Origin: an uncultured Alphaproteobacteria bacterium
GTDB taxonomy: Bacteria; Pseudomonadota; Alphaproteobacteria; Rs-D84
DNA: 64,000 nucleotides
Assembly: GCA_944389185.1 (NCBI GenBank)
Contig: CALXLL010000002.1
Location: 19,004-83,003, forward strand
Reading direction: 5' to 3'
The position numbers were made by a program, and so were the translations under genes. This document shows, piece after piece, positions 20,857 through 21,268 of the stretch (the stretch's first letter is position 1; each line of letters begins with the position of its first letter). The notes under the pieces were generated by a model. It did not search any database. It saw nothing but the letters and a program-made list of their open reading frames with translations, and had not been told where the DNA came from.

Positions 20857-21268
20857 CGAACCGCTAACCCACGTCTAAAAATAAAACCGCCACAAGGGCA
20901 GTTTGATTTTTGGTTGGGGCGCACTCAATTCCCTCGGGCTATGCCCTGCGGGGAAACCGTAACGGCTCGACTGCGTTAACACTTGTCTTGCCTACTTGTT
21001 TTCGAACCAGGCAACTTCGTTGCGTGGTCGAACCGCTAACCCACGTCCAAAAATAAAACCGCCACAAGGGCAGTTTAATTTTTGGTTGGGGCGCACTCAA
21101 TTCCCTCGGGCTATGCCCTGCGGGGAAACCGTAACGGCTCGACTGCGTTAACACTTGTCTTGCCTACTTGTTTTCGAACCAGGCAACTTCGTTGCGTGGT
21201 CGAACCGCTAACCCACGTCCAAAAATAAAACCGCCACAAGGGCAGTTTAATTTTTGGTTGGGGCGCAC
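20857..21268. repeat. 172-bp tandem repeat: 68-bp partial copy plus two identical full copies, each ending with the last 14 nt of tRNA-Gln
   Basis: Units 20925-21096 and 21097-21268 are identical by eye. 20857-20924 matches the unit's 3' part with 2 substitutions. GTGCGCCCCAACCA (minus strand) recurs at 20911-20924 and 21083-21096, and the genuine tRNA copy is at 21255-21268. Confidence 0.9.

Follow-up and report, generated by a model that had tools for sequence, protein, structure and literature searches.

Gene-less cassettes behind tRNA genes of the Candidatus Enterousia clade are probably insertion elements that target tRNA tails

Introduction

Why would a bacterium write the 3′ end of a tRNA gene three times in a row? 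In a 64,000-nucleotide stretch of the genome of an uncultured alphaproteobacterium of the Rs-D84 lineage (contig CALXLL010000002.1, positions 19,004 to 83,003; hereafter the window, with coordinates counted from its first letter), tRNA-Gln is followed by a 172-bp tandem repeat, each unit of which ends with the tail of that tRNA. An earlier sequence-only reading of this repeat offered three origins: attachment-site (att) scars stacked by repeated integration and excision, a tRNA-derived miniature mobile element, or a family of structured non-coding RNA genes. We show here that, in gut alphaproteobacteria of the Candidatus Enterousia (Rs-D84) clade, tRNA genes can have ~160–185-nt gene-less cassettes immediately 3′ of their CCA, and that the unit belongs to this family. 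The unit is probably a non-autonomous insertion cassette that targets tRNA tails and was recently duplicated at this locus. The miniature mobile element thus came closest among the three origins, in that these are gene-less cassettes behind tRNAs, with a copy of the tRNA 3′ end and a covarying fold; the stacked scars fit poorly.

Results

Tandem Repeats Finder placed the array at 20856–21268, with a period of 172, 2.4 copies, 99% matches and no indels. By script, unit 20925–21096 equals unit 21097–21268 base for base, and the 68-bp partial unit (20857–20924) carries two substitutions, at 20876 (T for C) and 20905 (G for A). The sequence-only reading had described these units exactly, and its hand count of about 90 G+C was also right (90 of 172, or 52.3%, against 37.3% for the whole window). 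It had further proposed that each unit ends with the last 14 nt of tRNA-Gln. Indeed, this 14-mer, GTGCGCCCCAACCA, has three exact sites in the 64 kb, at 20911, 21083 and 21255, all on the minus strand; by chance, 0.22 sites would be expected even with up to two mismatches allowed. Along the tRNA strand, tRNA-Gln leads into unit 1 and unit 2, which are succeeded by a 68-nt stump and then by a promoter-like site with the start of a gene for a 220-aa orphan protein. A terminator-type hairpin opens every unit, in agreement with the hairpin that had been noticed after the CCA, and no promoter-like site lies within the repeat units.

What is the unit made of? All its parts are on the minus strand, behind tRNA-Gln(UUG) (21255–21328, with CCA encoded; ARAGORN and Rfam), whose last 14 nt (21255–21268) are the repeated 14-nt core of the array. 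Copy 1 begins immediately 3′ of the CCA with module T (21221–21254), the terminator-type hairpin, which is flanked by A and U runs and whose stem covaries in relatives. Next comes module a′ (GGACGTGGGTTAGCGGTTCGA, 21200–21220), a degenerate antisense of tRNA-Gln from T loop to CCA, which lengthens the T hairpin. It is followed by the P2 hairpin GCAAC-GAAG-TTGC (21182–21196), then by a conserved core of 87 positions (21098–21183; 84.4 bits, E 7e-18 with our covariance model R1, supported by covariation) and, at the end, by the sense copy of the last 14 nt of tRNA-Gln (21083–21096). P2 and its covariation among relatives (GCGAC/GTCGC, ACAAC/GTTGT, GGCAAAC/GTTTGCC) were read from the alignment. 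Copy 2 (20911–21082) is identical, with T at 21049–21082, a′ at 21028–21048, the core at 20926–21011 and the 14-mer at 20911–20924. The third cassette is a stump (20856–20910) that holds both substitutions and consists of T and a complete a′ only, stopping exactly at the a′ end.

The cassette thus reads as T hairpin, a′, P2 cap hairpin, a sense tail that is split after GGTTCGA by the ~87-nt core, and the remaining sense tail to CCA; the T hairpin supplies a new terminator to the tRNA. Along the core lie GGTTCGA, the long-range helix MAAY/RWUK, AGTAG, the P3 hairpin, CGTYA, CCCC-RCAG, the P5 hairpin and GAGGGAAT. Two GGTTCGA motifs had been taken for T-loop-like elements, and both are present; they are not independent T loops: the first is the end of the antisense copy and the second the 5′ half of the sense copy, interrupted by the core.

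If the unit were specific to this genome, its relatives should lack it. To cover the clade, the 25-nt 3′ end of tRNA-Gln was scanned against one genome per species, which returned at least 120 contigs, 104 of them readable far enough downstream. Behind tRNA-Gln, arrays of ~170-nt cassettes that vary in make-up were met in more than 100 related species. In at least 35 species the 14-mer recurs without mismatch 168–184 nt downstream of the tRNA's own, and some have three copies. The arrangement of tRNA-Gln(UUG) followed by a same-strand tRNA-Glu(CUC) recurs in the clade (tRNA-Glu was downstream in 39 fetched loci), and the gap between the two is 49 nt in L032, 259 nt in L081 with one cassette, 430 nt in L094 with two, and up to >5 kb. 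A search of relatives, which the sequence-only reading had suggested, therefore bore fruit: the unit occurs in dozens of species, with covariation.

Several classes recur after tRNA-Gln: A (the window type), B, a leader with an 81-aa GIY-YIG open reading frame (ORF), D, E and F. They follow each other in mixed order (A+B, B+A, A+C, B+C), and their orientation is always that of the tRNA. Classes D and E, neither of which is matched by model R1, are also non-coding. Class D (L009, L019, L022, L038, L050, L088, L090, L100, L105) begins with an exact antisense of the tRNA tail, GGGCGCACGGAT, and ends in ...CCCGTGCGCATTCCAGAGAGC; class E (L027, L041, L045, L076, L079, L091, L097, L098, L101, L124) is built on the inverted repeat AGTTCGAAAGT...ACTTTCGAACT.

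Is the class A core confined to tRNA-Gln? A metagenome pattern drawn from the class A body (GGTTCGAMAAYRAGTAG, then 45–75 nt, then GAGGGAAT) found the core in 77 contigs. A same-strand tRNA stands upstream of 62 matches, usually 64–105 nt away, and these tRNAs comprise Ser(gga, cga, tga), Gln(ttg, ctg), Pro(cgg, tgg), Arg(acg, tct, ccg, cct), Lys(ttt, ctt) and Tyr(gta). In 27 of the 62, GAGGGAAT is followed by at least 14 and up to 20 exact nucleotides of the cognate tRNA 3′ end, typically from the GAAT of the T loop to CCA; most other cassettes have a truncated copy. Eleven such members (L128, L131, L138, L139, L145, L156, L177, L183, L187, L190, L199) carry GAAT plus 8–16 nt of tRNA tail and then a T run, and in truncated members the closing stem between a′ and sense copy, together with the U tract, resembles an intrinsic terminator. 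The tRNA-Glu gene has cassettes of its own in 6 of the 39 tRNA-Gln loci, 115 or 170 nt long, with ends that match the tRNA-Glu tail, variant for variant. On a tree of the 87-nt core, albeit a poorly resolved one, there are 28 changes of target label, where the minimum is 6 and shuffling gives 36.5.

The antisense module also follows the tRNA. Its first 7–10 nt are exact, reading TGGTTGG behind Gln, TGGCGGA behind Ser and TGGTCGGA behind Pro. Scored against the cognate tail a′ reaches 16.4, against other tails 12.1, and its best match is the cognate type in 28 of 56 cassettes (12 types; ~5 expected by chance). In the window, tRNA tail, terminator and a′ together form an imperfect hairpin of 84 nt (−38.4 kcal/mol as RNA).

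To ask whether the core has a conserved fold, we aligned 66 sequences and scored a structure that we had specified ourselves: helix MAAY/RWUK, P3 with its inner pair, P4 and the base of P5. Cells were paired in 97% of cases, and 12 of the 19 pairs showed double changes (240 cells); pair 107–155, for instance, is AU in 33 sequences, CG in 32 and something else in 1. The covariation score was 0.482, compared with 0.173 ± 0.009 in shuffled alignments, none of which reached the observed value in 500 trials, and it fell to 0.063 or less when partners were slid by 1–3 columns. Non-Watson-Crick cells included 16 G·T and only 1 A·C, showing that the fold belongs to the tRNA-sense strand. The invariance of GGTTCGA, AGTAG and GAGGGAAT in the metagenome set is partly imposed by the search pattern; the covarying helices and ~10 further invariant positions are not set by it. 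Model R1 found 34 core copies in the 763 kb of window and relatives, and exactly two in the window (20926–21011 and 21098–21183, each 84.4 bits). The stems listed in the sequence-only reading do occur in the sequence, but those conserved in relatives are different: the single-sequence fold (z = −2.4) has a long stem, TAGCGGTTCGAC/GTCGAGCCGTTA, that differs from the conserved one. The tRNA-sense strand of the cassette can fold into a three-way junction, which would present a duplex replica of the tRNA gene 3′ end.

A fold of this kind raises the question of whether the cassette is a known RNA. A permissive Rfam 15 scan of the unit gave only tRNA at threshold, no other family exceeding 22 bits where gathering scores lie above 34, and a scan of 12 relatives' loci at gathering thresholds gave tRNAs only. 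The Infernal/Rfam comparison proposed earlier thus led to no family besides tRNA, a result that excludes tmRNA (including permuted forms), YrlA-like RNAs, known ribozymes and group I and group II introns. Nor can the cassette be read as a decayed tRNA gene whose T loop is interrupted by an insert: a′ also pairs with the discriminator base and CCA, and a T-stem 5′ strand is missing, so that the structure is not a cloverleaf.

Could the cassette nonetheless be a host gene for a small RNA? Such a gene family might yield a stable RNA that mimics the tRNA tail, whether transcription ran on from the tRNA promoter or began at a weak promoter belonging to the cassette; the RNA would serve, for example, as a decoy or regulator of enzymes that read the acceptor/T-arm end. 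The strong covariation, with G·U wobble on the tRNA-sense strand, would suit it, and so would the 3′ end that imitates a tRNA up to CCA and the terminator, or stem plus U run, that follows every cassette. Orientation, too, goes with the tRNA, independently of the replication fork: 16 loci have a strongly negative and 16 a strongly positive sense-strand GC skew. However, the units lack an internal promoter-like site and have a good terminator ahead of each of them; their presence is patchy (about one third of species at tRNA-Gln, 6 of 39 loci at tRNA-Glu), their copy number varies and many copies are decayed. Moreover, classes are interchangeable at one site and body types are mixed across tRNA targets. 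We therefore consider a host small-RNA family improbable, although it is the strongest of the competing explanations.

The interval behind tRNA-Gln also bears on the possibility of an ordinary integrase island. Its larger inserts carry accessory genes (metallophosphatase, HD, APH, methyltransferases, HicB, AbiEii), and 70 ORFs from the intervals of 25 species, plus the two of the window, matched 62 Pfam families. Among the 25 commonest of these, we found no integrase, transposase or recombinase, and the sole nuclease-type families were GIY-YIG (5) and T5orf172 (3). The 81-aa GIY-YIG ORF, always 246 nt long, directly follows a CCA, either that of tRNA-Gln or the one that ends a cassette, at 16 loci (L006, L018, L021, L024, L049, L054, L064, L086, L087, L093, L095, L102, L104, L120, L124, L179). 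It has a structured leader of ~100–130 nt, with the Shine-Dalgarno sequence inside the last hairpin, and the module is joined to right ends of the A, B or D type. Because of this position and these fusions, it is the only visible candidate for a nuclease acting in trans.

According to the att-scar explanation, an integrase island or prophage at tRNA-Gln would have decayed to ~100 nt between attL and attR and then been amplified by unequal crossover. Direct repeats of the tRNA 3′ end are the known footprint of tRNA-targeting integrases and of integrations in succession (bioRxiv 10.1101/2020.12.28.424599), the tRNA-Gln/tRNA-Glu interval is a hot spot for accessory genes, and unit number differs between assemblies. 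Yet a decayed remnant would not retain an 87-nt core with compensatory changes over 66 divergent copies, nor recur with the same core behind at least seven tRNA families, with matching tails. The 25 commonest families in the 25 species' intervals include no integrase, and a search for a related full-length element gave no relevant match in phage and plasmid collections (BLAST) or in three scans of viral contigs. The stacked scars of the sequence-only reading leave the conserved core and the variety of tRNAs unexplained in the same way, and we regard an origin of this type as very unlikely.

Is the duplication itself real? The copy-number data come from Logan unitigs and contigs and from ENA assemblies, all of them short-read. 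Depth over the repeat unitig was 18.1 against 9.1 for the flanks in X1 and 54 against ~25 in X3, or 2.0x in both, indicating that in two independent runs the duplication is not an assembly artefact; the ratio was 1.6x in X2 and ~3x in X8. Run X1 is possibly the sample from which the window derives. X8 is labelled 'RNA-Seq' and has an even, DNA-like depth across the flanking genes (unstranded Logan contigs), so its ~3x cannot be read as expression. No contig of X1 joins the repeat to any other genomic context, and we found no further unit copies in the 64-kb window, nor any implied by X1 depth or loose contig ends. ENA assemblies of the same species have one full unit (L001) or two (L002) between otherwise identical flanks, meaning that unit number is polymorphic and that the two-unit state exists. 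In L002 a G-to-A change is common to both full units and absent from the stump.

Two perfectly identical units, at a repeat length that short-read assemblers do not count reliably and at which contigs break in several assemblies, might suggest slippage or an artefact of no wider meaning, but the doubled depth in two runs, the X-to-R junction with a proximal-type variant in independent assemblies and the conservation of the unit across dozens of species leave this explanation with hardly any likelihood.

Comparison of the copies suggests that the array gained one unit very recently, its last member having probably been reduced to T and a′. Unequal recombination between the 68-nt repeats, or re-insertion, would account for the gain. 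In one Logan assembly (L005, positions 1–70, corresponding to window 20857–20924) the distal repeat is chimeric, its first variable site having the base of the proximal type and its second that of the distal type, as expected of recombination between repeats or of a k-mer assembly chimera. Tandem A-A pairs occur in four lineages, with 93–100% identity within a genome and 72–93% between species, which indicates independent recent duplications. The perfect identity had been attributed to a very recent duplication or to ongoing homogenisation; the very recent duplication stands, and similar events took place separately in other species.

The remaining features of the locus are as follows. Upstream of tRNA-Gln, which has a sigma-70-like promoter (TTGCAA-16-TATAAT, 21374–21401, minus strand), lies a marR-tolC-RND (resistance-nodulation-division) operon. 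The tRNA has a U1-A72 pair and discriminator A73, a combination that fits organisms making Gln-tRNA by transamidation and not by glutaminyl-tRNA synthetase. On the other side, the array end is marked by the promoter-like site TTGTGA-16-TATAAT (20802–20829, minus strand) of the 220-aa orphan gene (20116–20778), and the variable interval, which opens at the tRNA-Gln CCA, has its conserved far limit at tRNA-Glu(CUC) (18493–18568, minus strand). Between array and tRNA-Glu (18675–20778), this interval holds two genes, for a 476-aa protein, whose counterparts in relatives include HD-domain matches, and for the 220-aa orphan, which has no Pfam match. The corresponding interval of the nearest relative, L077, has ORFs of 470 and 143 aa. 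In L116, ~90–300 nt after tRNA-Gln, a tRNA-Glu-like copy (GCTCCCATAGTCTAGCGGTTAG...) has an interruption of ~90 nt before ...CACGGGTTCGAG and precedes a second, intact tRNA-Glu start; it may be a pseudo-tRNA or a tRNA with an insert. Plus-strand GC skew is +0.15 to +0.22 over window 1–64000, with a dip to ~+0.05 at 40–52 kb, which puts the tRNA-Gln/tRNA-Glu pair and its cassettes on the lagging strand in the window.

Discussion

What, then, is the cassette? Our best reading is a selfish insertion element; a housekeeping RNA or a decayed island fits less well. A non-autonomous element is suggested by (i) patchy presence, interchangeable classes, variable copy number and decayed copies, many cassettes having decayed or truncated ends; and (ii) a fixed site after CCA, a tail that matches the upstream tRNA and one core combined with many targets.

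How might it move? The cassette would be mobilised by a factor encoded elsewhere, for which the 81-aa GIY-YIG nuclease module is a candidate trans-acting partner. In the proposed mechanism, a′ would pair with the split sense copy, P2 would cap one arm and the core would form the third, so that the folded duplex replica of the tRNA 3′ end carries the core exactly at the T-loop position A58/A59. The folded single strand, whether single-stranded DNA or RNA (as a guess, the odds are roughly even), may then serve as an att-like site for recombination with a tRNA gene over the stretch from T loop to CCA, its partner being the near-palindrome of T-loop DNA that all tRNA genes share. The sense copy would restore the tRNA, such that only insertions into a cognate tRNA survive selection.

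A bolder form of this proposal would make the cassette a new kind of protein-less mobile element. Its single-stranded form would display the duplex replica of the tRNA T-loop-to-CCA end, a′ would be an exchangeable guide or splint that chooses the tRNA, and the core would be catalytic or would recruit an enzyme (ribozyme- or DNAzyme-like, or a handle for GIY-YIG), amounting to nucleic-acid-programmed homing to tRNA ends. We put this forward tentatively and consider it unlikely.

Several points weigh against an insertion element. Mobility is deduced from distribution only. Short-read contigs, in which tandem and circle junctions look alike, yielded no excised form, empty-site read or donor, and no mobilising enzyme was found among the 25 commonest of the 62 interval Pfam families, which were those inspected. 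Module a′ is degenerate, being ~70–85% complementary with bulges, and could have arisen passively by quasi-palindrome template switching around the terminator. The strong covariation would fit a small RNA useful to the host equally well. Finally, target switching is read from an 87-nt tree of poor resolution, and the invariant blocks GGTTCGA, AGTAG and GAGGGAAT of the metagenome set were imposed by the search pattern.

If they do move, the cassettes rank among the smallest site-specific elements yet known from bacteria. Essential tRNA genes would be safe landing sites for them, since a new terminator and a replacement tail reduce the cost to the host to almost nil. A single core with interchangeable sense and antisense tRNA tails is the signature of programmable target choice, which would be of basic and possibly technical interest. 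The cassettes also explain the accessory-gene hot spot after tRNA-Gln in a lineage with very small genomes. On the practical side, R1 is a new covariance model with which hundreds of gut metagenome-assembled genomes can be annotated, and cassette sites are places where short-read assemblies break or miscount.

How do the cassettes relate to known systems? The full-text literature that we searched contained no published description of such elements. We rate the cassette as lying outside the known kinds because it lacks what defines miniature inverted-repeat transposable elements (MITEs), palindrome-associated transposable elements (PATEs), integron cassettes and all Rfam families; its mobility and mechanism we infer. 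As for MITEs, its ends (AAAATTAAAC... and ...GAGGGAATTGA) are not inverted repeats, it occurs at no sites other than tRNA ends, and what is duplicated is the tail of the tRNA. A target duplication of 14–15 bp recalls casposons, but terminal inverted repeats are absent and the host is a bacterium with a tiny genome. Exploitation of XerCD/dif, as in IMEX elements, was also rejected: by eye, no XerD-arm-like sequence follows the core, and the flanks differ between cassette classes.

Other systems share single features with the cassette. Like the primer-binding site of retroviruses and long-terminal-repeat (LTR) retroelements, it has a stretch complementary to one particular host tRNA at its 3′ end, CCA included; only the first 7–10 nt are exactly complementary, however, and there is no reverse transcriptase, LTR or polypurine tract. 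Group I introns and free-standing GIY-YIG homing-endonuclease genes, of which T4 SegB in a tRNA gene cluster is an example (PMC2330249), likewise combine a structured, tRNA-associated non-coding scaffold with or without a small GIY-YIG ORF. The cassette differs in lying 3′ of the tRNA and not inside it, and in having no intron core by Rfam; homing normally copies no target, and the 81-aa protein is a bare GIY-YIG domain that lacks a DNA-binding domain.

The PATEs of the IS200/IS605 family and the repetitive extragenic palindromes (REP) with their REP-associated tyrosine transposases (RAYT) are closer in design. They too are gene-less, rich in hairpins and strand-specific, their insertion point lies 3′ of a short, fixed target with which internal 'guide' bases pair, and the nuclease is supplied in trans. 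Hairpins are subterminal at both cassette ends as well, with T at the left and P5 located 8–13 nt before the terminal copy. By contrast, these systems have a bias for the lagging-strand template and targets of 4–5 nt, whereas the cassettes copy 14–20 nt of theirs; the 25 commonest Pfam families of the intervals included no Y1 HUH transposase. We rejected a lagging-strand model of the IS200/IS605 type for the cassettes, which have no replication-strand bias (16 against 16 loci): an orientation that follows the tRNA and not the fork argues against such a mechanism.

Folded single strands serve as recombination sites in integron attC and in the attP(+) hairpin of CTXphi, which uses XerCD. The resemblance may lie in strand-specific, imperfect hairpins, in structure conserved over sequence and in a single strand that imitates a duplex target; integrons, moreover, form tandem, co-oriented arrays of small cassettes, some of them gene-less. 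In the cassettes, the repeated 14-nt core with T and a′ makes an imperfect palindrome of ~84 nt and wobble pairs are strand-specific, while R″/R′ consensus boxes are absent. No intI or attI heads the array, and the operon upstream of tRNA-Gln is marR-tolC-RND. The cassettes thus differ from attC and CTXphi in having no IntI/attI platform or dif-like sequence, in forming a branched junction with an 87-nt core and in targeting the end of a tRNA gene.

The remaining comparison is with elements that integrate into tRNA genes. Gene-less derivatives of tRNA-integrating islands are known as CIMEs (cis-mobilizable elements). Tycheposons insert at the 3′ part of a tRNA, which is restored by a copy borne on the element, and do so successively (bioRxiv 10.1101/2020.12.28.424599). 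In tRNA islands, prophages, tycheposons and CIMEs alike and, on our reading, in the cassettes, insertion is at the tRNA 3′ part and an element copy restores the tRNA. All of them further share direct repeats from T loop to CCA, older insertions that are pushed outward and hot spots of accessory genes; in our case, direct repeats of the tRNA 3′ end flanking the insert are 14 nt and exact in the window and up to 20 nt in relatives. However, those elements measure kilobases and have, or derive from carriers of, tyrosine or serine recombinases, whereas the cassettes measure ~170 nt and the 172-nt cassette contains no integrase-like ORF. What sets the cassettes apart from them is a covarying fold, an extra antisense copy of the target and a single core that stands behind many tRNAs.

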